In this document: piece after piece, positions 12,131 through 40,788 of the stretch
How the letters are laid out: every line of letters starts with the position of its first letter
Numbering within the stretch: the stretch's first letter is position 1
Virus record (IMG/VR): IMGVR_UViG_3300037467_002795
DNA from: an uncultured virus (IMG/VR IMGVR_UViG_3300037467_002795)
Taxonomy: Duplodnaviria > Heunggongvirae > Uroviricota > Caudoviricetes
Reading direction: 5' to 3' (one strand)
DNA length: 64,000 nt
Translations under genes and position numbers: made by a program
The notes under the pieces: model-generated
Told to the model about the DNA's origin: nothing
Seen by the model: only the letters and a program-made list of their open reading frames with translations
The model's database searches: none

Positions 12131-12215
12131 ACACCTCCCTCTCCTGCCGGAACTGCGTTCCGGTCGCCAAAGGTGACTATGGAAGCTTCGCTCCCGTCGG
12201 CGGAGCCAACTGCCG
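12131..12215 (-). repeat. 85-bp multi-hairpin element, intergenic copy A
   Basis: Its reverse complement matches 40504-40588 at 73/85 nt with no gaps. Confidence 0.9.
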
Positions 12216-12230
12216 AAAGGTGTCCCACAC

Positions 12231-12677
12231 ATGCAGGTGACCGGTCTGGACTTTCGCACTTACAAATTGGACTTGGCCCGGAAGGTGGTAGTAGCGGACA
12301 CTCGCGTGCGTTCCTCGGGGCATCTGGAAGCCCGCCGCTTGTTGGTCGAGCTCTACCCCTTCGACCCCCCGCACGAAGAGGTATCATTGCCGGGGTGCCA
12401 GCGACCGCTGTATCTGGATTTTTTGCTGCCGACCCGGAAGCTGGCCGTCGAGGTCCAGGGCGTTCAGCACCGGCAGTTCACCCCCCACTTTCACGGCTCG
12501 CAAGCCAAGTTCCGCGAGCAGGTCCACCGCGACCGGCTCAAGGTTCAGTTTTGCGAACTCAACGGCATTGTTCTGGTGCATTTACATGACGATAGGCGAG
12601 AGGGATGGGCCGGACAACTCCGCAACGCCTGGCTGGCTGGCTCTCCAGCACCAGAGGCTGGACCAGTGGGAACTTGA
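12231..12677 (+). CDS. Vsr/DUF559-like PD-(D/E)XK endonuclease
   Basis: LYLDFLLP..KLAVEVQGVQH...RDRLKVQFCELNGI. Confidence 0.75.
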   Translation: MQVTGLDFRTYKLDLARKVVVADTRVRSSGHLEARRLLVELYPFDPPHEEVSLPGCQRPLYLDFLLPTRKLAVEVQGVQHRQFTPHFHGSQAKFREQVHRDRLKVQFCELNGIVLVHLHDDRREGWAGQLRNAWLAGSPAPEAGPVGT

Positions 12678-13104
12678 CGTGGGTTTACCCACCCTTCAGG
12701 TCCCCCTCATCAAGGACGAGGCCGTTCGACTACTAGAGCTGACCCCGGACGACCGCCGCAGGCTGTCCGGAGAAGAGCTGGCCGACGCCGCGGTGACCTT
12801 GAGTATGTACGCGACGTACCTTTCGAGATTGGCCCAGAGGGAGGAAGCTGACGCAGTCCTGCTCGATGAACGGGTAGTCTCGTTGTTACGATGTTCGCTT
12901 GCGAACCAGCCGGCTTACACCCCGCACGAACGGCGGGTTCTGGCACTGAACCAGAGCGTCGAAGCTCGGGCGACTGACCTTCAACGGGTTGGGGCCTCGG
13001 TGAAGGCCAAGCGGCTCGCGTTCTTTGCCGCTCGCGTGGACCGGGTAGCCCAGTCATACGAGCGGCTTGCTTATTCGAGGAGAGGGGAACGACATGGCCA
13101 GTAA
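12586..13104 (+). CDS. Hypothetical helical protein
   Basis: ORF in the replication operon. Confidence 0.5.
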   Translation: MTIGERDGPDNSATPGWLALQHQRLDQWELDVGLPTLQVPLIKDEAVRLLELTPDDRRRLSGEELADAAVTLSMYATYLSRLAQREEADAVLLDERVVSLLRCSLANQPAYTPHERRVLALNQSVEARATDLQRVGASVKAKRLAFFAARVDRVAQSYERLAYSRRGERHGQ

Positions 13105-13720
13105 GAAACCGACCGTGGCGGAACTGAAAGAGAAAATCCGCCATAGTATCGAAGCGGGTCGAATGGGTGATGCCCTGGAGGCGACAGAAGAGCTCGCAAA
13201 GCTCGCGGGAACTTCACCTCCCAAGAAAAAGGCGGCGGCCAAACCGAAGAGGTCGGCACCCAAAAAAAGCCGCGAGGCTGGGGCGAAGCCCCAGAAGCCC
13301 CAGAAGGCTATCGACCTACCTGACCTCGATACGACCGGGGCCGTCCTGCTTGATATTCCCAGTTCGACAAAGTCGAACAAGCCGGATATCGCCGACCAGT
13401 TCCGTGTGCAACCAAACCCCACGGCTCCCGACGGCCGCAAGTTTATGACCTCCGGAAAGGTCCAGACTGGCGTCAAAAAGAACACGTTCAGACCCAACAA
13501 AAAGGATGCGGTCAAGGAGCTGGAAGAGGACCGCCAGTTCTGGGAAGGGAAGGAGCCAACCTCTCGCGGCGACCGGGGCGAGGTGGATGTCCGCAGGGTG
13601 AAGGTTAAATGTGATAGATGCGAACGCACGTACGAGGCCGAGCCCTGGGACGTGGACCGACGGGTGGCGGGCGACGACGAGCGGATGGACAACGTGTGTC
13701 CGCGGTGCTTTCGTTCCTGA
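13094..13720 (+). CDS. Hypothetical protein with a C-terminal zinc finger
   Basis: CDRC...CPRC; basic low-complexity linker. Confidence 0.55.
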   Translation: MASKKPTVAELKEKIRHSIEAGRMGDALEATEELAKLAGTSPPKKKAAAKPKRSAPKKSREAGAKPQKPQKAIDLPDLDTTGAVLLDIPSSTKSNKPDIADQFRVQPNPTAPDGRKFMTSGKVQTGVKKNTFRPNKKDAVKELEEDRQFWEGKEPTSRGDRGEVDVRRVKVKCDRCERTYEAEPWDVDRRVAGDDERMDNVCPRCFRS

Positions 13721-13739
13721 CTGTTCTGGAGAACAGTAA

Positions 13740-15197
13740 ATGCCTGATGAGCTTTGCGACGTCTGGTCTGAGCGGGCAATTTTGGGGGCCTGCTTCCGGT
13801 ACGGAGCAGATGTCTTTATTGACGTGGACGATTTGGTTACCGACCGCTCGTTCACGGTTGATAGCAATAGGACCATCTTCAAGTGCCTGCGACACCTGTT
13901 CGGCCAGGACCCCGAATGCGTGCCGGATGTCCCGTCGATTTTATCCGCAGCTCGGGCCATCGGACTTGAAACGGTGTTTGAGGACGCGGAAGAACTCAAG
14001 CATCTGCGGGCGGTTCTGAATACGCCGGTCGAAAAAAACAATGCTCGCAAGCTCGCGGCGAAGGTCCGCAAGCTGGAAGTCGCTCGGGCCGGGCTCGAAA
14101 TCGGCGACCAAATCAAGGACGGGCTGCTGAAGGTCACCGGGGACGAGTCGGTCGCGGCCATCCTGAACCTGCTCGAGGCCCCCGTCTTCGAATTCGTTAA
14201 CGGTCTCGCCAAGGACCAGCAGGACGGCCCGAAACCCATCGGGGCCGACATTGACCTGTTCCTGGCCCACCTGGAGCAGCATCCAGTTGACCAGATGGGG
14301 CTGCCTCTGGGCCTGCCGAACTGGGAACGGGCAGTCGGGGGCGGAGCCAGGCCGGGCACACTGAACGTGTTCGGAGCTCGTCCAAAAACCGGGAAAACTT
14401 CCCTGGGTTTGAATATTGGAAGGTTTGTTGCCTCGCAGTTGAATTTGCCTGTCCTCTACCTCGATACGGAGATGACCGACAAGGACCACAAGGTCAAGAT
14501 GCTGGCCGCCCTGTCCGGGGTCCCCATGAAGACCATCGAGACGGGCAAGTTCGCGAGCACGGAGGAGGGACGACAGAAGGTGGCGGCAGCGGCCGACGTT
14601 ATCCGCCCGATGCCGTACGAGCCACTGAGCATCGCCGGGCAGCCGTTCGAGGAGACCGTGGCGATTATGCGGCGGTGGCTGGTCCGCCGGGTTGGGCTCG
14701 GGTCGGACGGCAAGGCCAAGCCCTGCCTGATTATTTTTGATTATCTGAAGCTGATGGAGGCCTCGGGGCTCTCGAAGCACCTCCAGGAGTTCCAATTACT
14801 GGGCTTCATCATGACCGGCCTGCACAACTTCGCGGTCAAGTATGGGGTGCCCATTGTCCTGTTTGTCCAGCTCAACCGGGACGGCATTGAGGCCGAAAAC
14901 TCGACGGCCGCTTCCGGCTCGGACCGCATCATTTGGCTGTGCAGCAACTTCACGATTTTCAAGCCGTTGACCGACGAAGAAATGGCCGACCAAACGGGCC
15001 GCAAAAAAAAGTTCAACCGCAAGTTCAAGGTCTCGGAATGTCGTCATGGGCCCGGACTCGACGGAGATGATTTTATTTACGTGGACTTCCAGCGGGACTG
15101 CTGCCTGATTACCGAGGGCCCCACGGTCAACCAGCTGCGGGCGAGCGACCCGACCAAACCGTTCTCGGTCGATGGGGGTGCGGATGTCGCGTTCTAG
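13740..15197 (+). CDS. dnaB: Replicative DNA helicase DnaB
   Basis: ERAILG, GARPKTGKT, YLDTEM, IIFDYLKL, QLNR, CRHGP. Confidence 0.92.
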   Translation: MPDELCDVWSERAILGACFRYGADVFIDVDDLVTDRSFTVDSNRTIFKCLRHLFGQDPECVPDVPSILSAARAIGLETVFEDAEELKHLRAVLNTPVEKNNARKLAAKVRKLEVARAGLEIGDQIKDGLLKVTGDESVAAILNLLEAPVFEFVNGLAKDQQDGPKPIGADIDLFLAHLEQHPVDQMGLPLGLPNWERAVGGGARPGTLNVFGARPKTGKTSLGLNIGRFVASQLNLPVLYLDTEMTDKDHKVKMLAALSGVPMKTIETGKFASTEEGRQKVAAAADVIRPMPYEPLSIAGQPFEETVAIMRRWLVRRVGLGSDGKAKPCLIIFDYLKLMEASGLSKHLQEFQLLGFIMTGLHNFAVKYGVPIVLFVQLNRDGIEAENSTAASGSDRIIWLCSNFTIFKPLTDEEMADQTGRKKKFNRKFKVSECRHGPGLDGDDFIYVDFQRDCCLITEGPTVNQLRASDPTKPFSVDGGADVAF

Positions 15198-16341
15198 CCA
15201 TCACCGCTTCTCGGATGTCGACCATGCGAGACTGAGTCTCTTGGGAGAACTCGCGTCCTACAAGACCGATGAGCTACTGACGCAACTGGACGTGCGGTGT
15301 CGGCGAACTGGCAAGTTGTACCTGGGTCCCTGCCCTGTTCATGACGGCGACCGGGCAAACGGCTGGAATTTTTACCCGGACGGGCACACGACGCGGGGCG
15401 TTTGGTATTGCCGGACCCGCGAGTGCCACAAGACGTTCGTCGGGGACATCCCGGGCTTGGTCCGCGGGATTCTGTCCCGGCGGGACCTGGGGTGGGAACC
15501 GGGGAGCCGCAAGCTTGTCCCGATGACGGAAGTCATCCAGTACCTGTGCGGGTTCGTCGGCCAGAGCTGGGACAGTCTCAAGGCAGACCTGGTGGCGGCC
15601 GAGAAGCGGCGGTTCGTGGCGGACATGGCGGTCCTGGGGCGGGCGGTAGAGACGCGAAGTGAGGGCTGGGACCCCAAGGTCGCCCGGGACCGGCTGTCGA
15701 TTCCCTCCCAATATTTTTTGAAGCGGGGGTGTTCCCGCGAGGTTCTCGAGCGGTATCTGGTGGGCGAATCCCGCGCGACGGACCCTGGTGCCGAGATGTA
15801 TCAGAGGGCGGTGGTCCCCATTTTTGACCGGGAAGGCCGGCGGGTGGTCGGGGGGACTGGACGCAGTGTGTGGGAGTGCTGCGCACGCTGTCGCCTCTGG
15901 CACAATCCCGAAGAGGGTTGTCCGTCCGGTGCGACGAGCGAAGCGAGAAGCACCAAGTGGAGACATAGCCGCGGATTCCCCGTCGAGCACACGCTGTATA
16001 ACTGGTGGGCGGCTCGCGAGCCGATTCGGACCCTGGGGCGGGTGGTCCTGGTCGAGGGCCCGCTCGATGTGCTCAAGCTCGAGATGGCCGGGGTGCGAAA
16101 CTCGGTCGCCCTCTTCGGGGTGAATCTCAGCGACCCCCAGCAGGTTTTGCTGGAAGGCTCCGGGGCCCACACGGTCATCCCCCTCCTGGACTCGGACCCC
16201 GCGGGGGCGGCCGGACGGGCGAACCTTATCAAGGAACTGCGTCGGTCGTTCCGGGTTCGGGCAGTTGAACTGCCGGGTAAGGACCCCGGGGATATGACTG
16301 CCGAACAGATTCGGGCCGAGCTAATTCCCCTGATTTCTTAG
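15184..16341 (+). CDS. dnaG: DNA primase (CHC2 zinc finger + TOPRIM)
   Basis: CPVHDGD...WYCRTREC; VLVEGPLDV; LDSDPAG; KDPGDM. Confidence 0.9.
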   Translation: MSRSSHHRFSDVDHARLSLLGELASYKTDELLTQLDVRCRRTGKLYLGPCPVHDGDRANGWNFYPDGHTTRGVWYCRTRECHKTFVGDIPGLVRGILSRRDLGWEPGSRKLVPMTEVIQYLCGFVGQSWDSLKADLVAAEKRRFVADMAVLGRAVETRSEGWDPKVARDRLSIPSQYFLKRGCSREVLERYLVGESRATDPGAEMYQRAVVPIFDREGRRVVGGTGRSVWECCARCRLWHNPEEGCPSGATSEARSTKWRHSRGFPVEHTLYNWWAAREPIRTLGRVVLVEGPLDVLKLEMAGVRNSVALFGVNLSDPQQVLLEGSGAHTVIPLLDSDPAGAAGRANLIKELRRSFRVRAVELPGKDPGDMTAEQIRAELIPLIS

Positions 16342-16365
16342 TGACCTATCCACGGAGTAGTTTTA

Positions 16366-16872
16366 GTGTCGACAAAACGACTACTCGTTGTCGGACATGG
16401 CAGGGCAGGCAAAGATACGGCCCTCGAGCACTTGGCCCTCATTACCGGGCTCAAGAATGCCGGAACGACCAGCCTGTACTTGGCCAAGTACGTAGCCGAA
16501 GCCCTTGGAGTTCCAAAGGAACTCGCGTACGCCGAACGCCACCAGAACCGCGAGATATGGAAACGAATTGGCGATGAAATCCGCCAAGACGACCCCACAA
16601 AGCTGATTCGCGAGGCGTTGGCGGTTGGGCCATTGACGGGCGGGGTGCGGGATATTGCGGAGGTCGCCGCGGCTCGGGCCGAAGGGCTATTCGACCTCAT
16701 TGTGTGGGTTCAAAACGACCGAGTCCCACCAGACCCCACGGTGACATTCACCGAGCGTGAGTGCGACGTGGTGATTCAGAATAATTGGGGTCTGTGTGAG
16801 TTCAAGAAGCGGCTGGAAAATATGGCGAAGTTTGGCGGATTTCTTTCGAGTCGGGATTTTCTTCACAGGTGA
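16366..16872 (+). CDS. Deoxynucleotide monophosphate kinase-like P-loop protein
   Basis: GHGRAGKDT; GVRD..E. Confidence 0.75.
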   Translation: MSTKRLLVVGHGRAGKDTALEHLALITGLKNAGTTSLYLAKYVAEALGVPKELAYAERHQNREIWKRIGDEIRQDDPTKLIREALAVGPLTGGVRDIAEVAAARAEGLFDLIVWVQNDRVPPDPTVTFTERECDVVIQNNWGLCEFKKRLENMAKFGGFLSSRDFLHR

Positions 16873-16885
16873 GCGGAGCGGACCC

Positions 16886-17122
16886 ATGAACCACATCAAC
16901 AATTTGCCCGTCGGGCTTCGTGAGGCCCTTAAGGATTACGCGACTCGTAAACGAGTCTTGGAACTGGCCGAGAAGGAATTGCAGGAGGCCCGGGACTGGG
17001 TTGAACAGTGTGTCGATACGCTCGACGGTCGCACGGTCGTGAATTACCTGGGCGTGGCCTACACGCTCGACCCGACCGACCGGTTTGTTCCATTTTCGGA
17101 CGACGGAGGGAGTTCGCGATGA
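16886..17122 (+). CDS. Hypothetical protein
   Basis: Short coupled ORF. Confidence 0.45.
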   Translation: MNHINNLPVGLREALKDYATRKRVLELAEKELQEARDWVEQCVDTLDGRTVVNYLGVAYTLDPTDRFVPFSDDGGSSR

Positions 17123-17277
17123 CTTGGGGTGAGTTCAAGCAATACTTGGCCGACCACGACGTGAAGGACTCGGACCCCATCTGGTATATAGACATTTCCC
17201 TGCCGGAACTCGAGAGTGTGACGAGGGAACCGACCGTAGTGGTTGACACCCAACTGGGGGTTGGGGTACACAATTGA
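17119..17277 (+). CDS. Small hypothetical protein (MTWGEFK...)
   Basis: ATGA overlap and GGAG RBS. Confidence 0.45.
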   Translation: MTWGEFKQYLADHDVKDSDPIWYIDISLPELESVTREPTVVVDTQLGVGVHN

Positions 17278-18305
17278 TTATCACATACCTGAGAAGTTCC
17301 TCGTATGGCACTTACTCCCTTTGCCCCTTCCAGTTCTATCTTAACTATACTTTAGGTATCCAACAGAAGCCGAATTTTAAGACTGAGAAGGGCTCAATTG
17401 TTCACAAGGCTCTCGAACTCCTGGCCCACCGCAAGGTGTGCGAACAGGGGGGATTGGCTGGATTCCGAGAGGACGAGCTCGGCCGCCAGTTCTGGGCCGA
17501 AGATATCAGTGTCGAGGCTGCGGTCGAAGCAGCCTGGCGGCATTACACGCACTTCAACGAAAGTGGGCACAATTGGCCACGGGCAGATTACGACGACTGC
17601 TTGCGGTGGACCCGGGACGTGGTCGAGTTCAACGATGGGTGTTTTAATCCGCTAAACCGACACATTGTTTGTCCGGAGCAATATTTCGACCTAACGGTCG
17701 ATGAGCCCTGGGCTCGGTACGAATACACCGACCCGTTCACGGGTAAAAAACTGGTGGGCCAACTGGCCGTCAAAGGTAGTATTGACCTGATTACGGAAGT
17801 GAACCAGGGTGTTCTCGAGTATCTAGACTGGAAGTCGGGCCGGCTCTGGGATTGGGCTAAGGACAAGCCAAAAGAGTACAAGGACCTATACGAGGACCCC
17901 CAACTTCTTCTTTATTTTTATGCCCTCAGCCGGCTTTACCCCCAATACCGGACCACGCTGGTGACCATCTTTTTCGCCCAGGTTCGAATGCCGTTTACTA
18001 TCCCATTTAACCGGGAAGTCGACGTGCCGCGGGCGCTCGACATGCTCCGAAAGCGGTTCGAGCTAATTCGCCACGACAACAAGCCGGCACGAATCATGGA
18101 CGACCCGGCGAAGCGGTGGAAGTGTGGCAGTTTCTGCTACTTCGGTCGCAATAAATATAAGGAGTCGAGCGACAGCATTTGCAATGTGGTCCACAAAGAT
18201 GTCGTGAAGCTGGGTCTGGAACGGGCAATGGTAAAACACGGACGATTTAACGCTTATAAGAATTACGGCAGCGGCGGCGGCCAATCTAATCGGGAGACGG
18301 TATGA
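17274..18305 (+). CDS. PD-(D/E)XK RecB/Cas4-like exonuclease
   Basis: CPFQF, GSIVHKALE, GSIDL, LDWKSG, QLLLY, C-terminal C..C..C. Confidence 0.85.
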   Translation: MIITYLRSSSYGTYSLCPFQFYLNYTLGIQQKPNFKTEKGSIVHKALELLAHRKVCEQGGLAGFREDELGRQFWAEDISVEAAVEAAWRHYTHFNESGHNWPRADYDDCLRWTRDVVEFNDGCFNPLNRHIVCPEQYFDLTVDEPWARYEYTDPFTGKKLVGQLAVKGSIDLITEVNQGVLEYLDWKSGRLWDWAKDKPKEYKDLYEDPQLLLYFYALSRLYPQYRTTLVTIFFAQVRMPFTIPFNREVDVPRALDMLRKRFELIRHDNKPARIMDDPAKRWKCGSFCYFGRNKYKESSDSICNVVHKDVVKLGLERAMVKHGRFNAYKNYGSGGGQSNRETV

Positions 18306-18514
18306 GCCTGACCCTAGTTGAAATCGACGGCGGATGGTCCGGTCTTTACCAAGACGGCGTCCTGAAAGTCGAAGGCCCCTTTATTACGGCTCAAGACCTG
18401 GCAGCCCTCGCCGGGATTCCGCTCGAAGTTCGCGAAGTGTCCGAACAGTTTTTGTTGAACAACGGCGGCTTACCGCTCAATCTGGCCCTGGTTTCTGACT
18501 CTCATAAGGAATAG
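18302..18514 (+). CDS. Hypothetical protein
   Basis: Coupled ORF; WSGLYQDGVL. Confidence 0.5.
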   Translation: MSLTLVEIDGGWSGLYQDGVLKVEGPFITAQDLAALAGIPLEVREVSEQFLLNNGGLPLNLALVSDSHKE

Positions 18515-18517
18515 TAA

Positions 18518-19009
18518 ATGGACCTCGATACTTTTCAGGCCAAGGTTCGCGAGACGGCGGCTTACCCCAGCGAAGCTTCGGTGGTTTACCCCGTGCTGGG
18601 CCTGGCGGGGGAAGCCGGTGAGGTCGCTGAAAAAGTCCGGGCTGCCCTCTTCCCTGCCGGACCTCCGACCGACTGGTCAGATATTTCCTGCCTGTTGAAG
18701 GAGCTCTACCGGTCATTAACCGAGGCTATGAACGCCGGCCGCCAGTGCGAACACCTCAAGAAGCGACTGCGGGACCGCACGGACAAGCTCCCACGGGGGT
18801 TCCTGGACGCTTTGGCCGGACTGGTTTCCCAGATTTCCGAGGATGCCAAGGTCGGAATCTTGAAGGAAGTCGGCGATGTGTGCTGGTACGGGCCTTCGGT
18901 CATCCACGACGTAGGTTCGACTCTCGAGAAGGTCTGTCAGGAGTTACTCGACAAGCTGGCCTCGCGGAAGGCTCGCGGGGTGATTGGGGGGTCGGGCGAC
19001 AACAGGTGA
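18518..19009 (+). CDS. MazG-like nucleotide pyrophosphohydrolase
   Basis: LGLAGEAGEVAEK, KEVGDVCWY, KLASRKARGVIGGSGDNR. Confidence 0.85.
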   Translation: MDLDTFQAKVRETAAYPSEASVVYPVLGLAGEAGEVAEKVRAALFPAGPPTDWSDISCLLKELYRSLTEAMNAGRQCEHLKKRLRDRTDKLPRGFLDALAGLVSQISEDAKVGILKEVGDVCWYGPSVIHDVGSTLEKVCQELLDKLASRKARGVIGGSGDNR

Positions 19010-19021
19010 ACGAAGTTCACT

Positions 19022-19077
19022 TCCGGCAGGAGAGGGACATGGGACATCTCTTGACCTTCCCTGCCGGACACTATAAT
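19022..19077 (+). promoter_or_regulatory. Sigma70-like promoter (TTGACC-15-TATAAT) overlapped by an inverted pair of the TCCGGCAG motif
   Basis: TTGACC 19051-19056, TATAAT 19072-19077; motif copies at 19022-19037(+) and 19053-19068(-). The spacer is short. Confidence 0.5.
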
Positions 19078-19096
19078 ATGAACTGTATAAAGACTC

Positions 19097-19801: not shown

Positions 19802-19805
19802 TAAT

Positions 19806-25005: not shown

Positions 25006-25017
25006 AAGTGACTATTT

Positions 25018-25299: not shown

Positions 25300-25380
25300 G
25301 TAGTATTAATTACAGGGCTGGCCCGAACATGATTCAGGCTATCGCTCTGGTAGGTATTATTTATTAACGAGGAGGATTGC

Positions 25381-25971: not shown

Positions 25972-25981
25972 GGAGCAAAGC

Positions 25982-30162: not shown

Positions 30163-30276
30163 CGATGGTATTATTTAATAGTGCCACCCGAGCCAAGAGC
30201 TTGGGTTTGCACGGAACGAAAACGGTTATTGGTTTTTCGCCATCTTAACAGGTAGGTTTGGAAGTTGGACCTCAAA

Positions 30277-33613: not shown

Positions 33614-34239
33614 AGCTGTTATTCGCACTGGACCGCGTGGGCGGCTGGGTAAGGGCCGCCGGCTATCTGGGTCATCAGGGGTTCGCGTTCGACCCGGCCC
33701 GGCCGTTCGATTCCTTCTTATGCAATCCCGACATCGTCTTCTGTGGAAATAAAGTCTCCTTCCGGCAGGGAAGTGGGGGCAGGGCTCTGGCCCGATATCC
33801 ACGTACTCGTCTCGTTGAAGTCTCCGCCCTTCCTCCCGCGGCCGATTGCCCGCCTGATTTTGCCGGCGGCCGGGTCCGCCCCGAGTTCGTGTGTGATGTG
33901 GTAGTGGTCGGCGAATACCGGAGCGAGGTCGACGAACCACTCCGCCAGATTCTCGGAGCCGGCCTGCACCTGAAGGTGTTCGGTCGCGGTCCCTGGCCGG
34001 TCGCCCAGTGTGCCGGGTATGTGCCGGCCGTGGACATCGCGGACGTGTACGCCTCGGCCCGGTATACGTTGGACCTGGGGGGCGATGTGGGGCGAACAAT
34101 GACCGTCCGAAAAGCGGGCGGCCGACCGGCGAGTGTGACTCAGATTCTGGCGGGTGAGCCTGTTGAAGACGAGCCCGTAATAACACTGGCGGAGCAACTT
34201 CAAAAAATCCTCGCGGGGGTCGAACCGTGCCCGATTTGA
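33610..34239 (+). CDS. CgeB/GT-B-like protein
   Basis: LPPAAD, CDVVVVG, LKVFG..W, YASA. Confidence 0.5.
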   Translation: MKLLFALDRVGGWVRAAGYLGHQGFAFDPARPFDSFLCNPDIVFCGNKVSFRQGSGGRALARYPRTRLVEVSALPPAADCPPDFAGGRVRPEFVCDVVVVGEYRSEVDEPLRQILGAGLHLKVFGRGPWPVAQCAGYVPAVDIADVYASARYTLDLGGDVGRTMTVRKAGGRPASVTQILAGEPVEDEPVITLAEQLQKILAGVEPCPI

Positions 34240-34793
34240 CGATTCTCGCCACCGCCCACGAGCCCGAGACCCGAATCGACCGCCTGATGTGGTCGTTGTC
34301 GGTGGACCGGCCGACGGTCCCGTTCGACCTGGTCGTGGTGGACATCGCTCACGACGACGGGCTTATCGAGCAACTCCTACCCTACCGCACGACCTGTCCC
34401 TGGAAACTGGTCCGGCTCGGCGGTGATGTGAGGTTGGGGGAGTTAGTCCGGGGGCGAATGGTCCTTTCCCTGCCGGCGTCCGCCATCCCCCTTTCAGGGG
34501 CAGTCGAGCAAGTCCGCACCGCGGCAGAAAACGGACCGGTCGCGGCTCAGTTCCGGGCGGTCGGCCCGCTCGGTGTGTACGGACTGGACGACTTGGGGTC
34601 GAACTTGACGCCCGAGATGGTCGAGGACTCGCCTTCCGTCGCGACCATCGGGTGCTGTTGGCGGCGGGAAGAGTGGGCGGAAAACGTGGCAGGCAATTCG
34701 GCCGACAGCGGGGCGGCTTTTGTTCTGTATCCGTGCCCTCGAATCTGGACGACGGCCCCGGACGAGTTCGTTCATGTGGTGGCGAACAACTGA
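34227..34793 (+). CDS. Divergent GT2-like protein
   Basis: LMWSL...PFDLVVVD...DD. Confidence 0.45.
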   Translation: MPDLTILATAHEPETRIDRLMWSLSVDRPTVPFDLVVVDIAHDDGLIEQLLPYRTTCPWKLVRLGGDVRLGELVRGRMVLSLPASAIPLSGAVEQVRTAAENGPVAAQFRAVGPLGVYGLDDLGSNLTPEMVEDSPSVATIGCCWRREEWAENVAGNSADSGAAFVLYPCPRIWTTAPDEFVHVVANN

Positions 34794-35272
34794 TGTTAAC
34801 CCCTCAATTTCTGGTCGAACACATGACTCCCGCCGAACGCGGCAACTGGTCCGGCATCGGGCTCGTCGTTGTCAACGGACAACTCGTCGTTCGAGCCAAG
34901 GACCGACACGGGTATACGGTCGACGGCCCCCCGCAGCCGACCCCGGCCCTTCTGGTGGTTGACGGGGTGGCCGAACCCGAACAGGCGAAGCCGATTTCGG
35001 TGGCTGCGTGGTGGGCCTGCCTGTGGTGGGCCGAGCGGGCAGTCAAACGCGCACAGCACCAGGACTGGGAAGGGGTCGGCGAGGCGGTCGACCAGGCGTA
35101 CGGGGCCGAACGGGAACACCTTCTCGGACCCTCCGCGAAAGCGGACTTGGCATATGCGGCGGCCCGGTCGGCGGGAGCGTGGGGCGGCCGGCCGTCCGGC
35201 AACGCCTTGTTGTTGTTGGCCCCGCCCGAGCACCACGAGAGAATCCGAACTGAGGTCCGAAAGGTACTTTAA
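34793..35272 (+). CDS. Hypothetical protein
   Basis: TGATG coupling. Confidence 0.5.
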   Translation: MLTPQFLVEHMTPAERGNWSGIGLVVVNGQLVVRAKDRHGYTVDGPPQPTPALLVVDGVAEPEQAKPISVAAWWACLWWAERAVKRAQHQDWEGVGEAVDQAYGAEREHLLGPSAKADLAYAAARSAGAWGGRPSGNALLLLAPPEHHERIRTEVRKVL

Positions 35273-35274
35273 AC

Positions 35275-35574
35275 ATGGCGATTCGACCCGACACCGACGA
35301 ACTGATTGCTTATCTAAACAACTTACTACAAGTCGACCCGAGTCTCATCCACCAACTGGTTATTACTCGGTTTGCATGCAACACAAAAATGACCGAGCAC
35401 CCGACCGTTCAGGTTTATCCTATGGAAGGCGAATGGGCTGTCGGTCTCCTCGGGATTTTGAATGGCTATTGTGGCGTGTATGACGACGGTCCCCGACAAG
35501 GGTATGGGCCAATTTCGGTCTTGATGAGCACTGAAGGCGGCGTTGTTGGCTTTACCAGGACACCGAACGAATGA
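35275..35574 (+). CDS. Hypothetical phage protein (VGLLGILNG)
   Basis: ORF in the operon. Confidence 0.55.
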   Translation: MAIRPDTDELIAYLNNLLQVDPSLIHQLVITRFACNTKMTEHPTVQVYPMEGEWAVGLLGILNGYCGVYDDGPRQGYGPISVLMSTEGGVVGFTRTPNE

Positions 35575-36035
35575 ACCGCGTCGGCATAATGGTCAAGAAT
35601 TTGGGGCCGAGCGAGTTGAACTGGCGACTGGTTCGACAGGCCAATCACCTCATGGCCCGTGGACAAGCCTCGGTCGTTTTTTTTTACGAAGACCTCGCCC
35701 CTGCTTTCCAGGCCCCACTCGGGGCCACGATGAATACGGTCGAGGCCTGGGGATTCGACGGCCCCGTCGTCGCCACCAGCCTGTCGACCGCTCGCAAGCT
35801 CTCGCTGTGCCCGACCGCCCGGACCCGTCTGTTTTATTTGTGGGACCTCGAGTGGCTGAGGCTGACGGACCGGCCGTACCGGGCCCTCCGGTCAATTTAC
35901 AGCGATAAATCCTTGAAGCTGGTCTGTCAGACCGAAGAACACCGCCGGCTCGTTGAAGACCTATGGGGCGTCCCGGTGGCCGGGGTGGTGGAGCGGGCGA
36001 ACCTGAGTGAGTTGATGGAGCTATGCACGAGCTGA
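35571..36035 (+). CDS. Glycosyltransferase N-terminal-like protein
   Basis: FDGPVVATS..TA...FYLWDLEW. Confidence 0.55.
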   Translation: MNRVGIMVKNLGPSELNWRLVRQANHLMARGQASVVFFYEDLAPAFQAPLGATMNTVEAWGFDGPVVATSLSTARKLSLCPTARTRLFYLWDLEWLRLTDRPYRALRSIYSDKSLKLVCQTEEHRRLVEDLWGVPVAGVVERANLSELMELCTS

Positions 36036-36787
36036 CAAGAGAGTTTCTCGAGCGAGAATACTGGGCGAACGAAAAAAGTCCCCGGCAAATCGCGGCCGAG
36101 ACCGGCCTGAACATCAACCGCGTGAGGCGAGAATTACGCCGGCACTGGGACAAGTTGAGAACGCGGGCCGAGGCCCAGGCGGCGGCAATCCGGCAGGGAA
36201 GGCACAAGCACCCCACGAAAGGCCAGCCCTGCTCGGACGAACGACGCCTGAGCATTTCGCGGACCCTGGTCGGGCAGTGTATGCAGGCGACGGACCGGCG
36301 GCGGCGCGCGTGGTCGGAGGCCGGAAAAAAGGCCTGGGAAGGCAAAAATAGTGCCCAAAGACGCCGGGTCGCGCGCAGGGGCAACAGGGCCCTCCAGGCG
36401 GTTACCAAAACCGGGTCGCGGGCCGAACGCCTGCTAGCCGAGGGGCTCCGGCGGGCGGGGTACGAGGTGCTCCAGCGGGACGTCCATGCTGACCTTCTCC
36501 TGCCGGAAATCCGCGCGGCCGTCTGGGTCGAGGGAGCCCCCACTTACTTGCCGATTTGGGGCGAGGAGGCCTTGGAGGCGGCTCGCGAGCGGGCGGCCGA
36601 AAAGCGGACAAAGGCCCGCCAAGCCGGCTTTCATGTGGTCCGTGTCCGCATCCCCCCCGGGCGGCTGTCGGTGGTTTCAGGCATCGAACTATTGAATTCG
36701 CTGTTGGACACGCTAAAATTGGTGAAGGACGAGTCCGAACCGGGTGAATACGAAATCGGGGTGAGTGATGGCCAAGCGGAAAGTTGA
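36023..36787 (+). CDS. HTH + Vsr/DUF559-like nuclease (homing-endonuclease-like)
   Basis: FLEREY..KSPRQIAAE; SRAE; ADLLLPE..VWVEG. Confidence 0.6.
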   Translation: MHELTREFLEREYWANEKSPRQIAAETGLNINRVRRELRRHWDKLRTRAEAQAAAIRQGRHKHPTKGQPCSDERRLSISRTLVGQCMQATDRRRRAWSEAGKKAWEGKNSAQRRRVARRGNRALQAVTKTGSRAERLLAEGLRRAGYEVLQRDVHADLLLPEIRAAVWVEGAPTYLPIWGEEALEAARERAAEKRTKARQAGFHVVRVRIPPGRLSVVSGIELLNSLLDTLKLVKDESEPGEYEIGVSDGQAES

Positions 36788-37652
36788 ACTGGCCGAGCCG
36801 ACCGAAGAACTCCTGGGGGGCGTTTTGGACCGCCTGGAAGTCGCTCGACCGACAGTCGTTGCCGACATTCCGGCAGTCGGCTTCGCCGACGGAAGCGGAG
36901 CTTCCACCGGAGAGGGGGAGCAGTCCGTGGGCTGCGGAGCAGTCCCACCCATTAATTCGGCGGACTGGACTCCCTTCATTATGTCCAAACTGACACAGGA
37001 CGAGGTCCATGACGGGTGCCCGACCTACCAGGGCCTCGAACGCCTCTGTTACGAGTACCTCGGCGACATCGTGGACATCGACATCGACCCCCGCCAGGCC
37101 CCGAACGTCCACAACGGGAACCACACGTGTCTGGTGGCCCGCATCACGATTGACCACCCGCCGGAGTTCGACTGGCTCGGGCGGATTGCCGGGCGGACCA
37201 TTCGGTACTCGCATGTCGGGGACACGTTCAACGGGAACGGCGGCCGGAAGGACTCGTTCGCGTGGCAGTTCTCGTCCGCCACCTGCGCGACCCGGGCGAA
37301 GGCCAGCTTGCTCCGCGGGGCATTCCGCCTCCGGCACGTGTACGCCAAGGAAGAACTGTCCGGGCTAAGCCCCGGGGAAAGTGGGGCGGACGCCTATATT
37401 ATTGTGACCCAGGTTGACGGCCTGGACATGATGTGTAGTAGGCTGAACGTCAACGTGACCAAATTCCTGATGCAGACCTGGAAGCATTACGTGAAGGACC
37501 AGAAGGGTGAAGACCTGAACTTTATTCCTTATTGGGTGGTCCAAAAGTCGTTCGCCCAACTCCAGCCCTGGCAGCACGACAAGTCCACCATCCCTGCCGG
37601 AGTGCTCGGGTACGACCCGGACTGGAAGAACGGGTTGAAGTGTCTCGCATAA
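36768..37652 (+). CDS. Conserved phage protein (possible ssDNA-annealing protein)
   Basis: PTYQGLERL, ATCATRAKASLLR..L..YAKEE. Confidence 0.45.
   Translation: MAKRKVELAEPTEELLGGVLDRLEVARPTVVADIPAVGFADGSGASTGEGEQSVGCGAVPPINSADWTPFIMSKLTQDEVHDGCPTYQGLERLCYEYLGDIVDIDIDPRQAPNVHNGNHTCLVARITIDHPPEFDWLGRIAGRTIRYSHVGDTFNGNGGRKDSFAWQFSSATCATRAKASLLRGAFRLRHVYAKEELSGLSPGESGADAYIIVTQVDGLDMMCSRLNVNVTKFLMQTWKHYVKDQKGEDLNFIPYWVVQKSFAQLQPWQHDKSTIPAGVLGYDPDWKNGLKCLA
36869..36920 (+). repeat. Partial multi-hairpin element, copy C (in frame in the CDS)
   Basis: TCCGGCA-GTCGGC ttc GCCGAC-GGAAGC gga GCTTCC. Confidence 0.8.
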
Positions 37653-37690
37653 CTCACGTGTAATATTCCTTTAGCCAATTTGGAGTTTGT

Positions 37691-38080
37691 ATGCTTAAAG
37701 TTCAGGTTAAAATTAGCCCGACGGTGATTGTCGAGGCCCAGGGTGCGACCCAGAAAGAAGTTTATAACCAGCTCGCCATGTCGGCCGAAGTGTTCGGCGA
37801 GCGGGAGTGTGGCCTTTGCAAGTGTAAGGACATCGCGTTCACAAAACGAAACGTAGATTCCAATGATTATTTTGAGATGACCTGCCTCAATTACCAGTGT
37901 GGGGCCCGTCTCTCGATGGGTCAGTCCAAGCAGCGGCCGGGGGAACTTTTCCCGATTCGCAAGCTCATTACGAGCGGCCCCGAAAAGGGCAAGCCGTCTC
38001 GGAAAAAGGGCGATTATGGTGACCACCGCGGGTGGACCAAATACCGCGGGAAGCCCATCGAAGAAGATGGCGACGAATAA
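37691..38080 (+). CDS. Zn-ribbon phage protein
   Basis: CGLC...C...CGARL, GWTKY. Confidence 0.6.
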   Translation: MLKVQVKISPTVIVEAQGATQKEVYNQLAMSAEVFGERECGLCKCKDIAFTKRNVDSNDYFEMTCLNYQCGARLSMGQSKQRPGELFPIRKLITSGPEKGKPSRKKGDYGDHRGWTKYRGKPIEEDGDE

Positions 38081-38082
38081 TT

Positions 38083-39318
38083 GTGGCCGTTCTACACTGC
38101 ACCTGCAACGGTGCCCGGGACATTTCCTGCGAGCACTGTAAGGTTCGCTGGCAACTGACCAGCATTCACTCGGTCGCCCACCCCCCGTTCTGTCCCGGTG
38201 CTGTGGTTGTGGACCACGGGGCCGGCGGCATCGGGGACGGGCTCCTCGGCCTCCTCTCGGTCGCCCGCCTGTCTGCCGATAACCCGGACGTGCCGGTCGA
38301 ATATCGGGTGAGCGAGACGGCCGAGCCCTGGGTCCGGCTGTTCACCGGATACGCTCATCTGGGTCGACACACAAGGGCCCACAGTGAGGCCATGTTGGTC
38401 GGGGCCCGGCAATTGAACGCTGGGTATACTATAGAGAACGAGAACCGCTATAAAATCCCACGGTGGGAACGGTATTCCCGTAATATCGGAGCAAGCGGAG
38501 TTCTGATTCCGCCCCTCCGCGAAGCGGATGTGGTTCGGGCGGCGGGAACCGACCTCGCGGGTCGTGTTTGCCTGTTCCCGTTCTCGACCGACCGGGCTCG
38601 CGAATGGTCCCTCCAGCACTGGCTGATGCTGGAGGACATGCTACTGAGGGCCGGCTACCAGACAGCCGTCTTTCACACGAACGAAGACAAGGTCAGGCGG
38701 TTTCGGGGAGATAGGGTCGCCGGCCAGACGCCCGAGCGAGTTGCCGGTGTCATCTTGAATTCGCATTGTTCCATCGGAACAGACAGTGGGTTATCGCACC
38801 TGTCCGGGATTCTCGGCGTCCCGACCATTATTCTAGGCGGCTCGACCCCCGTCGAACAAATCTTCGGCGTTTATCCTCGCGTCACATGTGTCCAGGGCGG
38901 ACTGTCCTGTTCGGGCTGTTGTGGGTTTGGTGTGGACGAGCGGTGTCCGGCGTCCTGTTCGAACCTTCAGTCGATTTCACCGGACCGCGTTTTGGACGAA
39001 GTCGAACAGCTATCACCGCGTCCGGTTCCTCGGCGGACAACCGCCTTGTCCATGTTGGAGCCGTTCCGGGCGTACACCCCGGCGGATGATGACGAGCAGC
39101 GGCGGCATTTGGACAGGGACACCTGGTTGTACAAGCCGGGTCGGCGGAAGTATTTATGCTCGGTGCTCGGGGCCGTTCACGAAGAACTGGAATTGGACCG
39201 GCCGGATTTAGCTCGGCTGGTCCGCGAGGCGGTCTGTATGGCCCGGCGACTGAATGATTTTGGGGTCTCGCAAGAGAAGCTTGACTGGGACAGTCCGCCA
39301 AAGTTCGTCGGTGACTAA
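38083..39318 (+). CDS. GT9 (ADP-heptose heptosyltransferase-like) with a Cys-rich N-terminal tag
   Basis: GGIGDGL, REWS, IGTDSGLSHLSGILGVPTIIL, CSGC..C..C..ISPDRV. Confidence 0.85.
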   Translation: MAVLHCTCNGARDISCEHCKVRWQLTSIHSVAHPPFCPGAVVVDHGAGGIGDGLLGLLSVARLSADNPDVPVEYRVSETAEPWVRLFTGYAHLGRHTRAHSEAMLVGARQLNAGYTIENENRYKIPRWERYSRNIGASGVLIPPLREADVVRAAGTDLAGRVCLFPFSTDRAREWSLQHWLMLEDMLLRAGYQTAVFHTNEDKVRRFRGDRVAGQTPERVAGVILNSHCSIGTDSGLSHLSGILGVPTIILGGSTPVEQIFGVYPRVTCVQGGLSCSGCCGFGVDERCPASCSNLQSISPDRVLDEVEQLSPRPVPRRTTALSMLEPFRAYTPADDDEQRRHLDRDTWLYKPGRRKYLCSVLGAVHEELELDRPDLARLVREAVCMARRLNDFGVSQEKLDWDSPPKFVGD

Positions 39319-39331
39319 CTCCGGAGACGCT

Positions 39332-39919
39332 ATGTTAACTTTCCTCACAAATCACGATTCGAGCGAAGCCCGTGAGTTCGCGGCCGGATTTACTGACCCT
39401 CAAGCCGCCTGGGACACCTGCGAGCGAGGCGACTGGATGCTGTGGGTCGCCGGCAAACTAAGCGGCAACCGCGAGTCGGCGGCCCGGCAGAAGCTCGTGC
39501 GGGTCGCGACCGAGTGTGCCCGGCTGGCTCCCCCGATTCAAGGCAGCGTGGTTCTAGAAACCGACCGGGTCCGGTCTCTTGACCTTTGCGAGAGATGGGC
39601 CCGGGGCGACGAGGGTGTATCGCTGGAGGACGTGCGAGCAGCCCGCCGAATTGTCCCCTTCGGTGGCTCTGCCGATACCGCCGTCGTCGATGTTGCTTTT
39701 GCGGTCTACGCCGACGCCTCTGGTGTCATCGACCGAGACACCTACGGCATCGCCTCGGCCGACAACGCCGCGGGTGCCGCCGCTTACAGGGCTGCCGTTT
39801 CGTACGCCGGTCACGTCTCCGGCTATCCGGTCGTCCACCCCGACGACGCCAATCTGAAGATGGTCCTCAAGGAGGCGGCGGATATTGTCCGTTGGCACTA
39901 CCCGACCGTGCCGGCATGA
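39332..39919 (+). CDS. Hypothetical Ala-rich phage protein (AWDTCERGDWMLW)
   Basis: GGAG RBS; helical low-complexity ORF. Confidence 0.55.
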   Translation: MLTFLTNHDSSEAREFAAGFTDPQAAWDTCERGDWMLWVAGKLSGNRESAARQKLVRVATECARLAPPIQGSVVLETDRVRSLDLCERWARGDEGVSLEDVRAARRIVPFGGSADTAVVDVAFAVYADASGVIDRDTYGIASADNAAGAAAYRAAVSYAGHVSGYPVVHPDDANLKMVLKEAADIVRWHYPTVPA

Positions 39920-40788
39920 TTGACGCTGGGCGGTTCCGCGGCAAACGAATTCTCGTCGTCGGCGACCTGATGCTGGACGTGGACATTCGCGGTCGCATTG
40001 ACCGGTTCGACGCCGCCTTCCCCGAATGCCCGGTGTTCACGGAGACTCACCGGGAATCCCGACCGGGCGGGGCCGGGGCCGTTGCGGCGATGGTCGAGGT
40101 GCTTGGCGGGGTCGTCCAGCTCGTTGCCGGTCCGGCCTCAATCAAGACCCGATTTTTGGTCGACGGCCGTCAGGCCTGGCGGCACGATATGGACACTTCG
40201 GGCGGGTTAACCACCGACCCCGTTCATCTCGTGTCTGAGGTGGATGTCGTCCTGGTGTGCGACCACGGGAAGGGCACTCTTACTGAATCTCTCCTGCCGG
40301 AACTGATGGCGACTGCGGGCCGGCACAACGTGCCCGTTTTGGTCGACCCGGCCCGGGGACGGCCCTGGGACATTTATCAGGGTGCGACCCTCATCAAGTG
40401 CAACGAGCATGAGTTGGCCGGGATAGCCCCGGTCACCGTCATTACGAAAGGCGGGGCCGGCTTGGAACTCTGGATGTCGACTCAGTCAACAGGACCGGAG
40501 GTCCGGCAGTTGGCTTCGCCAACGGGAGTGAAACTCCCACAGTCACCATTGGCGACCGGAGCGCAGCTCCGGCAGGGAAGTGAGGTGTCCATCGTCCCCG
40601 CCCGCCCCTCCCGAGTTGTCGACACAACCGGGTGTGGGGACCAGGTACTCGCCGTGCTCGGGCTGTGCGCCGCGGCCGGCATTGGCTGGCTCGAGGCCTG
40701 TCGGTTGGCGGTCGTAGCCGCCGGACTCCAGGCCGAGCGGCGGGGGGCGGTCCCGGTCCGACCGGACGAAGTCCGGTCCGGTGTATGA
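39916..40788 (+). CDS. Heptose-7-phosphate kinase (RfaE/HldE domain I, PfkB family)
   Basis: ILVVGDLMLD, PGGAG, KTRF, DHGKG, VLVDP, IKCNEHE, DTTGCGD. Confidence 0.88.
   Translation: MIDAGRFRGKRILVVGDLMLDVDIRGRIDRFDAAFPECPVFTETHRESRPGGAGAVAAMVEVLGGVVQLVAGPASIKTRFLVDGRQAWRHDMDTSGGLTTDPVHLVSEVDVVLVCDHGKGTLTESLLPELMATAGRHNVPVLVDPARGRPWDIYQGATLIKCNEHELAGIAPVTVITKGGAGLELWMSTQSTGPEVRQLASPTGVKLPQSPLATGAQLRQGSEVSIVPARPSRVVDTTGCGDQVLAVLGLCAAAGIGWLEACRLAVVAAGLQAERRGAVPVRPDEVRSGV
40504..40588 (+). repeat. 85-bp multi-hairpin element, copy B, in frame inside the heptose kinase
   Basis: 73/85 identity to the reverse complement of 12131-12215. Confidence 0.9.

Follow-up and report, generated by a model that had tools for sequence, protein, structure and literature searches.

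A 33-nucleotide two-hairpin unit dispersed with a short motif in an uncultured soil phage, a candidate mobile cassette

What is the 85-bp, four-hairpin element that occurs twice in a 64,000-nucleotide stretch (the window) of an uncultured tailed phage from soil, and how does it relate to the short motif in which it ends? The initial annotation took it to be a new repeated element, REP/MITE-like or else origin- or promoter-like, and a possible source of the dispersed motif. As a description this stands up well. In a gap-free alignment copies A (12131-12215, minus) and B (40504-40588, plus) agree at 73 of 85 positions; they form an inverted-repeat pair of 85 nt that is 86% complementary, their four hairpins fold as described on either strand, and the further sites cited (48162-48178, 36876, 36891, 51364 and 25828) all exist. 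A model search of the window and of L015-L017 for more copies gave four full four-hairpin copies (102-110 bits) and around ten shorter members, which supports a repeated and structured family. Full copies C and D lie outside the window in G002, a longer record (100 kb) of the same phage; G003 is a sister strain, and the strains compared are 93-99% identical. In total 103 kb of sequence is available for the lineage (completeness by CheckV 43% for G001 and 66% for G002), and the host probably belongs to the Gemmataceae. One big ORF has no megablast match in cultured phages, helicase relatives are all below 30% identity, and a tRNA scan of the window found none.

The covariation of the stems is borne out: across the full copies A to D, 89.6% of 96 pair cells are standard against 25-54% in slid controls, and five pairs have changed on both sides. 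The claim of GNA-type loops also holds, the loops often being GC-GNA-GC with hairpin potential kept rather than sequence, and many stems close as GC-GAA-GC or GC-GCA-GC, types known for very stable mini-hairpins in DNA. Triloop hairpins with stems of at least 6 bp number 87, compared with a mean of 33.8 and a maximum of 46 in 20 shuffles. What did not survive is the 85-bp element as the basic unit, the real repeat being 33 nt: two 15-nt triloop hairpins in a row, the first usually GT-NNNN-loop-NNNN-AC, followed by a linker of three nucleotides (ACA, GCA or CAG). Because the repeating unit is 33 nt, the 85-mer is a unit dimer plus the motif. With 16 units aligned at this length, 176 of 192 cells are paired, as against 52-99 of 192 with slid partners, and the median identity between units is 20/33. 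Copy B reaches one unit further upstream than the 40504 start given at first, its left flank (CTCTGGAT) holding a weak half-motif only. The family occupies at least 12 places in the one phage lineage, as single cassettes or arrays of two or three units, and the 15-nt hairpins occur in arrays of 2-6 (Table 1). Members B, D, E, F, G and P are inside ORFs; J is intergenic at a switch of gene orientation.

Table 1. Cassette family members, motif copies and adjoining genes in the window
Feature	Position	Strand	Remarks
Copy A	12131..12218	minus	intergenic; 107.6 bits
Copy A, left half-motif TTTCGGCA	12211-12218	minus	
Copy A, units	A1 12178-12210; A2 12145-12177	minus	
Copy A, terminal motif T-CCGGCAGG-AGAG	12139-12151	minus	
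Copy A, tail GGGAGGTGT	12131-12139	minus	
Unknown-function gene	11713..12126	plus	ends 5 nt before copy A
HNH-type homing endonuclease-like gene	12231..12677	plus	starts 13 nt past left end of A
Copy B	40476..40588	plus	109.6 bits; three 33-nt units, 99 nt = 33 codons
Copy B, units	B0 40476-40508; B1 40509-40541; B2 40542-40574	plus	
Copy B, terminal motif	40568-40580	plus	
Heptose-7-phosphate kinase (PfkB/HldA-like) gene	39943..40788	plus	hosts copy B
Member E, one unit	36868..36918	plus	46.7 bits; inside ORF 36765-37652; TTCCGGCA -> GTCGGCttcGCCGAC GGAAGCggaGCTTCC ACC -> GGAGAGGGGG
Member F, one unit	28303..28344	plus	inside glycosyltransferase ORF; TTCCGACAG -> ACCGACtctGTCGGC GTGAGCtccGCTCAC TCG
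Member J	51354..51396	plus	14.7 bits; TTTCCGGCAG -> GTCGGCtccGCCGAC + shorter second hairpin
Single hairpin CCGGAACgcaGTTCCGG fused to motif	48162..48187	plus	same as HP4 of copy A; faces minus-strand motif (core start 48243); inverted pair 31 nt, 97%
Single hairpin GGGACCgaaGGTCC fused to motif	32456..32486	plus	like HP4 of copy C; inside ORF 32283-32936
Hairpin GTGAACgaaGTTCAC, then plus-strand motif (core 19023)	19006..19068		faces minus-strand motif 19055-19068
Degenerate partial copy	3214..3316	minus	51 nt, 75% match to right part of B; 19.1 bits
Solitary HP1-type hairpin GTCGGCggaGCCGAC	25828..25842		
Motif, all copies	1..64000	both	25 full copies (12 plus, 13 minus); 39 CCGGCAGG cores

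The architecture proposed at first does end in the dispersed motif, whereas the GAGGTGT tail is common to A and B only. The motif, T-CCGGCAGG-RRAG (13-14 nt), is phage-specific and far outnumbers the cassettes. Its cores number 71 against about 8.5 expected from base composition, divided about equally between the strands (34 and 37), and when up to two mismatches are allowed the 14-mer is found 24 times where shuffles give 0.84. In G002 there are 42 full copies, spread over both strands and all six reading frames. Long ORFs contain 49 of the 71 cores, again in all six frames, with 22 outside. Outside this phage a 19-mer version found 110 scattered single matches and no genome with several among 185,579 species genomes, the 14-mer pattern occurred up to six times per genome in 401 Planctomycetota genomes, near its reversed-pattern control and so at chance level, and among the matches listed for viral contigs it gave scattered single matches. 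The motif is not enriched in 20 terminase-related loci, G003 excepted, nor in the kinase relatives L256 and L257. Between strains its canonical copies vary less than their flanks (3/98 against 39/420, Fisher p = 0.04). So abundant on both strands, and overlapping coding sequence, the 14-nt motif is an unexplained phage-specific DNA signal.

Most arrays interrupt the motif as TTCCGGCAG^GRRAG. A mini-hairpin can form from the motif alone (TTCC-GGCAG-GGAA), and the junction falls at the 3' edge of its loop. By hand count the left half-motif precedes some 9-10 of 12 arrays and the right half follows 7 of 12; longer arrays have TCCGGCA(G) on both flanks, which may be target or element sequence. Hairpins are present at only about 12 of the 71 cores, the motif is intact in G003 where G002 has a unit, and the kinase gene that hosts copy B also carries a solo motif (minus strand, core start 40300) in a stretch with no length change relative to homologues. 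These observations speak against the element as source of the motif, and it looks as if the motif is the target of the element and not its product.

Whether the units move can be asked at two genes. Copy A is intergenic, as first described; copy B lies inside the kinase gene, as an in-frame insertion of 33 codons, and the segment of about 32-33 residues that it encodes is absent from 8 of 8 aligned homologues, chosen from the best-scoring of 533 matches. An AlphaFold model of the kinase (mean pLDDT 86.8) is poor only at residues 181-210 (block means 54, 41 and 46), a stretch that matches the insert, residues 179-211, which the model places between two strands. Assembled contigs of four runs across 32000-51999 included none that skips copy B, and contigs break within it, which a repeat would be expected to cause. 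At A and B the two strains compared are identical, and no version of either site lacking its copy was seen. The second gene, portal-like, does differ between strains: G002 has one clean 33-bp unit where G003 has the intact motif TCCGGCAGGAGAGGGAG, with about 50 nt on each flank identical and CAGG repeated at both ends, and the G003 protein is shorter by exactly 11 residues at the site. This unit (G against P) is 30/33 identical to one 90 kb away, two of the three differences making up a compensating pair. At locus C a four-hairpin copy in G002 is replaced in G001 and G003 by an unrelated hairpin array adjoining the same conserved motif, and another between-strain indel is a single 16-bp hairpin. 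An exact deletion in G003 would explain the portal-like difference equally well. Terminal inverted repeats are absent, the two ends of a 33- or 66-nt insert do not complement each other, and since the direct repeat is just 3-4 nt (CAG or CAGG) the insertion point is ambiguous. Independent events are few because a single phage lineage carries the family.

On balance we favour, somewhat cautiously, the view that the element is a small non-autonomous palindromic insertion cassette, REP/RPE-like, which targets the motif. The 85-bp element would then be a tandem dimer of the 33-nt cassette, with units copied from site to site either by an HUH-like, hairpin-directed single-strand DNA nuclease-transferase encoded outside the 103 kb or by short-homology gene conversion between motif copies. 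Insertions within genes would survive as extra loops or disordered linkers, presumably because a unit spans exactly 11 codons and 2-6 of the six frames stay open through the GC-rich palindromes. A compact, almost fully coding phage genome can thus tolerate a selfish repeat, the unit being a whole number of codons. The cassettes themselves may be selfish or neutral, and the solo motif probably benefits the phage through a role on DNA. A cognate RAYT/HUH gene, the search for which the initial annotation had proposed, was not found in the 103 kb (PF01797 has no match in G001 or G002, 43% and 66% complete), and Pfam and PHROG scans of the ORFs gave no cassette transposase; the 3.3 kb at the right end of G003 that extends beyond G002 also holds no transposase. 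The sole transposon-type gene is a C-terminal fragment of TnpB, truncated where contig G002 stops on the left; no record was found that continues beyond this end. In a bolder form, which we consider rather improbable, a dedicated hairpin-directed phage system would write the two-hairpin cassettes into the loop of the 14-nt mini-hairpin, the motif being kept across coding regions as landing pad or self-mark; its enzyme could be an unrecognised single-strand DNA nuclease-transferase among the phage's many proteins of unknown function or lie on the missing third of the genome. If true, such a system would be a built-in generator of peptide insertions and of recombination break-points in phage genes.

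Alternatively the motif and hairpins may be functional DNA structures, sites that a phage protein binds or processes when the DNA is single-stranded or in cruciform, and selected rather than mobile; roles in lagging-strand priming, recombination, packaging or the marking of self come into consideration. Retention of hairpin potential via double changes, the frequency of stable-loop types, the conservation of the motif relative to its flanks, its near-equal use of both strands and its overlay of coding sequence at 40300 without an indel all fit such sites. However, arrays are dispensable or replaceable between strains 93-99% identical, within proteins they fall in loops or disordered stretches, their locations are scattered and about a dozen in number, and relatives with a 61-63% identical terminase are without the motif. 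This reading fits the solo motif better than the cassettes, and as a whole it is unlikely. The single-site, origin- or promoter-like role of the initial annotation is not supported, given at least 12 arrays, some of them dispensable between strains.

Compensating changes need not reflect selection, and could come from template switching within palindromes, which is able to mimic them. Each array might then have formed at its own locus, through slippage or a template switch on the quasi-palindromic motif, and have drifted since without any copying to other loci. GGAAG, the right half-motif, has the same sequence as the 5' arm of the adjoining hairpin, which leaves CTTCC two possible partners, and locus C is hypervariable. 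Such an origin is nonetheless improbable, as distant loci have near-identical units (A/B 73/85 at 28 kb, G/P 30/33 at 90 kb), and the fixed 33-nt unit with its constant two-hairpin order is unlike random fold-back synthesis.

It is very doubtful that the cassettes regulate at the RNA level, whether by ending or stabilising transcripts or as a module of promoter and ribosome site, in the manner of the PeSL of T4-type phages. Motif copies do occur just before start codons (224-237 before ATG 242; in G002, 17734 before ATG 17749), A and B terminate in a GGAGGTG-like sequence, and the cores are more frequent outside long ORFs (the 22 of 71 above). Against this, the 49 cores within long ORFs are in six frames, the hairpins are followed by GCAGGRRAG or another hairpin and not by the T-run of an intrinsic terminator, and the logo has no conserved upstream element. 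A DNA role is the likelier, as had been argued earlier, because orientation to transcription is mixed (about five sense and five antisense) and many copies are inside genes. Scarcely credible is a parallel with phage N4, in which hairpins serve as promoters for a virion RNA polymerase specific for single strands: N4 early promoters resemble the stems of 5-7 bp with 3-nt loops present here, but no such polymerase is seen in the 103 kb, the match to PhageMin_Tail (2e-19) and to PHROG tape-measure families makes the 3067-aa protein a tape measure, and co-oriented early genes do not lie downstream of the elements.

The window has no Rfam match at the gathering threshold, and no match was found in cultured phages or plasmids. 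In viral contigs the core pattern picked out only this phage again, in near-identical records, plus one match due to chance, and a degenerate HP1-HP2 pattern gave 0 matches in metagenome contigs, a set that may omit near-identical records. The open-access literature gave no account of such cassettes, whether from phages of Planctomycetota or from other sources. Bacterial chromosomes are well known to carry small palindromic repeats; to our knowledge their mobility is rarely seen as a clean filled and empty-site pair, and the repeats themselves are little described in phages. Here the mechanism becomes testable, since the unit is minimal (33 nt), its target motif is defined, one site is filled in one sister strain and empty in the other, and two recognisable genes carry in-frame insertions.

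Several known systems share some of these features. IS200/IS605 elements and their miniature derivatives have no terminal inverted repeats, hairpin-defined ends, and insertion beside a short specific sequence. The cassettes likewise have hairpin ends, no inverted repeats and insertion 3' of a short specific sequence, and the TnpB fragment is of that family, with a motif 46 nt past its stop; however, no Y1 TnpA was found in G001 or G002, there is no strand bias, and the sequence after the TnpB stop has by eye no cassette similarity, its fold giving only the motif mini-hairpin. Hairpin-forming modules in varying number also make up the BOX elements of Streptococcus pneumoniae, which are bacterial and for the most part intergenic, with modules of 45-59 bp; the phage arrays share this modular build and variable hairpin number, the unit being 33 nt. 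For the motif only, the stoperators of cluster A mycobacteriophages offer an analogue, as asymmetric 13-14-bp sites in tens of copies per genome, intergenic and oriented with transcription, whereas the motif here is mostly intragenic and on both strands.

Some REP families are described as sitting within a small abundant target palindrome, as for GTAG-23 of Thermomicrobium roseum (PMC3733652). REP/BIME are palindromes of 20-40 bp, in mosaics and sometimes in genes, and the phage hairpin arrays are such palindrome mosaics. They differ in lacking a conserved GTAG/CGTC tag (the junction is GCA|G or CAG|G, with GTAG in copy D only) and, on the 103 kb available, a detected RAYT gene, in residing in a phage genome, and in their intragenic members. 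We know of no counterpart in REP/BIME to a 33-nt two-hairpin unit of 3n length. The PeSL cassettes combine a stem-loop with a conserved motif, repeated genome-wide and at indel boundaries as described (PMC4122927); they are intergenic terminator/promoter units co-oriented with genes, whereas the copies here are mostly intragenic and in either orientation. Small non-autonomous mobile elements are reported in phage genomes as vMITEs (PMC11602168), which occur also in the host genus and have terminal inverted repeats as their defining feature; here the motif is at chance level in the 401 Planctomycetota genomes, and the cassettes have no such repeats. As regards the fixed-length target-site duplication expected of a DDE-type MITE, the portal-like site shows the CAGG repeat only, and the flanks of the longer arrays may be target or element sequence. 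Rickettsia palindromic elements (RPE) are described as palindromic repeats lying in frame in unrelated protein genes, the encoded peptide being tolerated by the fold (PMC10969869, PMC3733652). Here too insertions are in frame and missing from the compared proteins (the kinase in 8/8 homologues, the portal-like gene by 11 codons between G002 and G003), the kinase insert being placed by the model in a fold-compatible loop or surface segment. Compared by description, RPE are about 150 bp, bacterial, and encode a conserved peptide per family, whereas the phage unit is 33 nt, modular, used in several frames and both orientations, and tied to a 14-nt motif.

The four-hairpin element of 85 bp is built from a smaller modular cassette, a 33-nt unit of two hairpins. 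Copies A and B align without gaps at 73/85 and both fold into four hairpins (HP1-HP4) on either strand, as the initial annotation had it, and the further hairpin sites that it listed are all present. Two more full copies, C and D, lie outside the window in the related IMG/VR contig G002, and a covariance model built from A-D, a search that the annotation had proposed, scores the four at 102-110 bits and also matches about ten weaker, shorter members in the 100.5 kb searched. The covariation claimed for the stems holds across A-D, with standard pairs in 89.6% of 96 pair cells and two-sided change at 5 pairs, as against 25-54% pairing when partners are slid, and the observed values were reached by only 2-15 of 500 shuffles. 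HP1 and HP2 with the following ACA make one unit, HP3 and HP4 with GCA a second, and a third unit upstream extends copy B to 99 nt.

Each unit comprises a hairpin a of 15 nt (mostly GT-NNNN-loop-NNNN-AC), a hairpin b of 15 nt and a linker of 3 nt, and in this register 16 units from 12 loci align with 176/192 cells paired, against 52-99/192 with a slid partner, and with 32 pair types against 17-28 in the slid controls. Since pairing is kept while median identity between the 16 units is only 20/33, it is hairpin potential and not sequence that the units have in common. Three sub-types are visible, in which hairpin b and the linker are GGRAGY-gaa-RCTYCC with ACA or ATA, SGGANC-gna-GNTCCG with GCA, and GTGARC-ttt-GYTCAC with CAG. 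Genome-wide there are 87 triloop hairpins with a stem of at least 6, whereas 20 dinucleotide shuffles averaged 33.8 and never exceeded 46, and the loops GAA/TTC, GGA/TCC and GCA/TGC account for 37 of them.

Cassettes survive in frame inside genes. Copy B lies in a kinase gene, where a segment of about 32 residues coinciding with it is absent from 8/8 aligned homologues, chosen from the best-scoring of 533 matches, and its three units encode STQSTGPEVRQ, LASPTGVKLPQ and SPLATGAQLRQ. The AlphaFold model of the kinase (mean pLDDT 86.8, pTM 0.86) is confident except at residues 181-210, between strands 173-179 and 213-219, where block means drop to 54, 41 and 46, and this stretch matches the copy B insert. 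The strains are nearly identical at A and B and no polymorphism was seen at either, nor did any record in contigs of four runs skip copy B. Contigs of four runs carry A>G at window position 40545, at the A-C mismatch of HP3, each time at 31 nt from where the contig ends; this is probably no allele but a paralogue whose stem pairs perfectly.

Filled and empty states are found between strains elsewhere. In the portal-like gene G002 carries a 33-bp unit, GTCGGCttcGCCGAC GTGAGCtttGCTCAC CAG, where the related contig G003 has an intact uninterrupted TCCGGCAGGAGAGGGAG, with about 50 nt identical on each side. The G002 protein has exactly 11 residues, GEQSSRRRSRP, that the G003 protein lacks; the insertion site is a low-complexity linker. 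The unit shares 30/33 positions with another on the opposite strand at G002 5816-5848, two of the three differences being a compensating pair. Locus C is occupied in G002 by the four-hairpin copy and a further long hairpin, and in G003 and a third related contig, G001, by another hairpin array that these two share, with the conserved motif and flanks the same in all. G002 also has a 16-bp single hairpin, GTCGAACaaaGTTCGAC, that G003 lacks, and copy D with two or three more members occupies a C-terminal tail of low complexity in a DndB-like ORF. Window 61437-63560, which holds tandem HNH/endonuclease VII-like genes, is not matched by BLAST in G002, which has some 1.5 kb (83400-84913) at the same place; this difference is a homing-endonuclease-type polymorphism.

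The dispersed motif is T-CCGGCAGG-RRAG, with no further conservation over the 30 nt before it or the 45 nt after it, and is predicted to fold as a TTCC-GGCAG-GGAA mini-hairpin. With at most 2 mismatches allowed, its 14-mer form is found 24 times in the window, where shuffled sequence gives 0.84; the window holds 39 cores and 25 full copies, and G002 has 42 full 13-mer copies and 71 CCGGCAGG cores, of which 34 are plus and 37 minus and for which base composition predicts about 8.5. Because 49 of those 71 lie in long ORFs, in all three frames, sense and antisense, the motif seems to be a DNA-level signal overlying coding sequence. At least the minus-strand copy in the kinase gene (core start 40300) came about through substitution and not insertion, as the protein alignment with homologues has no length change there. 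Between strains canonical copies changed at 3/98 positions against 39/420 in flanks (p = 0.04), a weak hint of constraint. Among terminase-related phages only G003 (91% amino acid identity) has the motif, which is absent from relatives at 61-63%. The motif is no host-type repeat: 185,579 species genomes yielded 110 scattered single matches to a 19-mer version, and no more than 6 matches to the 14-mer pattern occur in any of 401 Planctomycetota genomes, which is close to control level. Facing motif pairs 40-70 nt apart (window 19023/19067 and 48175/48243, G002 15913/15953) form longer inverted repeats, and one of them encloses a start codon.

By our count on the aligned-unit table the left half-motif (TTCCGGCA or a close variant) directly precedes about 9-10 of 12 arrays and the right half (GGRRAG) follows 7 of 12, and so the motif is split, with the arrays between its halves. 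The linker of a terminal unit, together with the 3' arm of its hairpin b, re-creates the left half-motif. Cassettes show no preference of orientation relative to transcription (about 5 sense, 5 antisense). Cassettes would be copied between loci, the junction falling behind GGCAG, where the loop that the motif itself can form has its edge. Their having no inverted repeats, in which they differ from MITEs, may point either to an HUH-like mechanism that is directed by hairpins and acts on single strands or to conversion of one motif copy by another, the 8-9-nt half-motifs serving as homology. The cognate HUH gene that the initial annotation had suggested looking for was not found, there being no Y1/HUH gene in the 103 kb covered (G002 is rated 66% complete). 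A motif lies 46 nt past the stop codon of a TnpB fragment in G002, and folding of the sequence beyond that stop gave only the mini-hairpin of the motif, with nothing like the hairpins of a cassette.

Template switching as a purely local source, without transfer between loci, fits in part, accounting for the palindromes and compensating changes but leaving unexplained the near-identical units at distances of 28 and 90 kb. Selection for a structural role accounts better for the solo motif than for the cassettes, which one strain or another can do without. Roles at the RNA level suit a minority of intergenic copies but not the 49 intragenic cores in all frames, and N4-type hairpin promoters fail because no such polymerase was found in the 103 kb covered.

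As to known elements, the miniature derivatives of IS200/IS605 are among the closest analogues; assignment to IS200/IS605 cannot be made without a TnpA. RPEs are in-frame palindromic insertions (PMC10969869, PMC3733652), and some REPs are located within small target palindromes (PMC3733652), which puts both among the closest analogues. Unlike REPs, the phage family has no conserved REP tag and is not confined to extragenic positions. The repeats known from phage genomes, PeSLs (PMC4122927) and vMITEs (PMC11602168), are both unlike the cassettes in structure and location. In the open-access papers searched, hairpin cassettes of 33 nt are nowhere described from phages.

Coordinates and annotation of the features discussed
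Feature	Record	Position	Strand	Remarks
Copy A	window	12131-12215	minus	
Copy B	window	40504-40588	plus	
Third unit of B	window	40476-40508		
Copy C	G002	86935-87017	minus	full copy, 78% identity to B
Copy D	G002	5972-6049	plus	full copy, 78% identity to B
PfkB-family heptose-7-phosphate kinase	window	39943-40788		Pfam 2e-15; PDB 4e84 2.8e-15
Portal-like gene	G002	95476-97758	minus	adjoins terminase
TnpB/Cas12f-like C-terminal fragment	G002 (left-end stretch L015)	75-665	plus	PF07282 1.5e-22; PHROG 'transposase'; cut by left contig end
Ribonucleotide reductase-like ORF, 1079 aa	G002	17749-20988 (L015 17749-20000 onward)		LAGLIDADG domain
Region of the split DNA polymerase	window	19097-25005		ORFs 19806-21845, 23395-25005
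DnaB-like helicase, primase, split family-A DNA polymerase, SSB	window			PHROG + Pfam scans
PD-(D/E)XK nuclease	window			PHROG + Pfam scans
HNH endonucleases, several	window			PHROG + Pfam scans
Sugar-metabolism and glycosyltransferase block	window			PHROG + Pfam scans
Methyltransferase, ATP-grasp, DegT aminotransferase, several glycosyltransferases, heptosyltransferase-like, heptose kinase	window	1243-6455, 26590-43138		
NTP transferase, dNMP phosphatase-like, NT5C, MazG	window	1243-6455, 26590-43138		
Region of the Fic/DOC-domain protein	window	51388-52459	minus	adjoins HTH regulator
Tape measure protein, very long, 3067 aa	window	52431-61634	minus	PHROG + Pfam scans
HNH/endonuclease VII-like genes	window	61627-62478, 62492-63121		tandem

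Judged by its gene content the window is part of a tailed phage, with a GC of about 0.6 and nearly all genes on the plus strand up to about 51 kb, followed by structural genes on the minus strand, as read from codon-position GC. No close relative was found among cultured phages, and among public records those closest to the window are G001 (64 kb, with a single mismatch over 3292-64000 and thus practically identical there), G002 (100 kb, 99.2% identity to 203-61436) and G003 (41 kb, 93-98.7% identity to the right part of G002). Strain divergence is mosaic, nearly all 468 mismatches to G002 falling in 0-3.5 kb and 59-64 kb, with 4-58 kb nearly identical. A Planctomycetota host is likely, given the Gemmataceae label of the best kinase homologue and of one terminase homologue and the soil or rhizosphere origin of all sequencing runs that contain the phage DNA. 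The many sugar and nucleotide-modification genes suggest virion glycosylation or modified DNA.

Between the two polymerase ORFs lie a UDG-family gene and an RNase T-like exonuclease gene, with an HNH-HTH endonuclease gene just upstream. The LAGLIDADG domain of the ribonucleotide reductase-like ORF is probably an intein, and an intein is also present in P0126, a terminase relative at 91% identity. Known tape-measure profiles match only residues ~67-627 and 2513-2579 of the tape measure protein, and the Fic/DOC-domain gene sits at the point where gene orientation switches.
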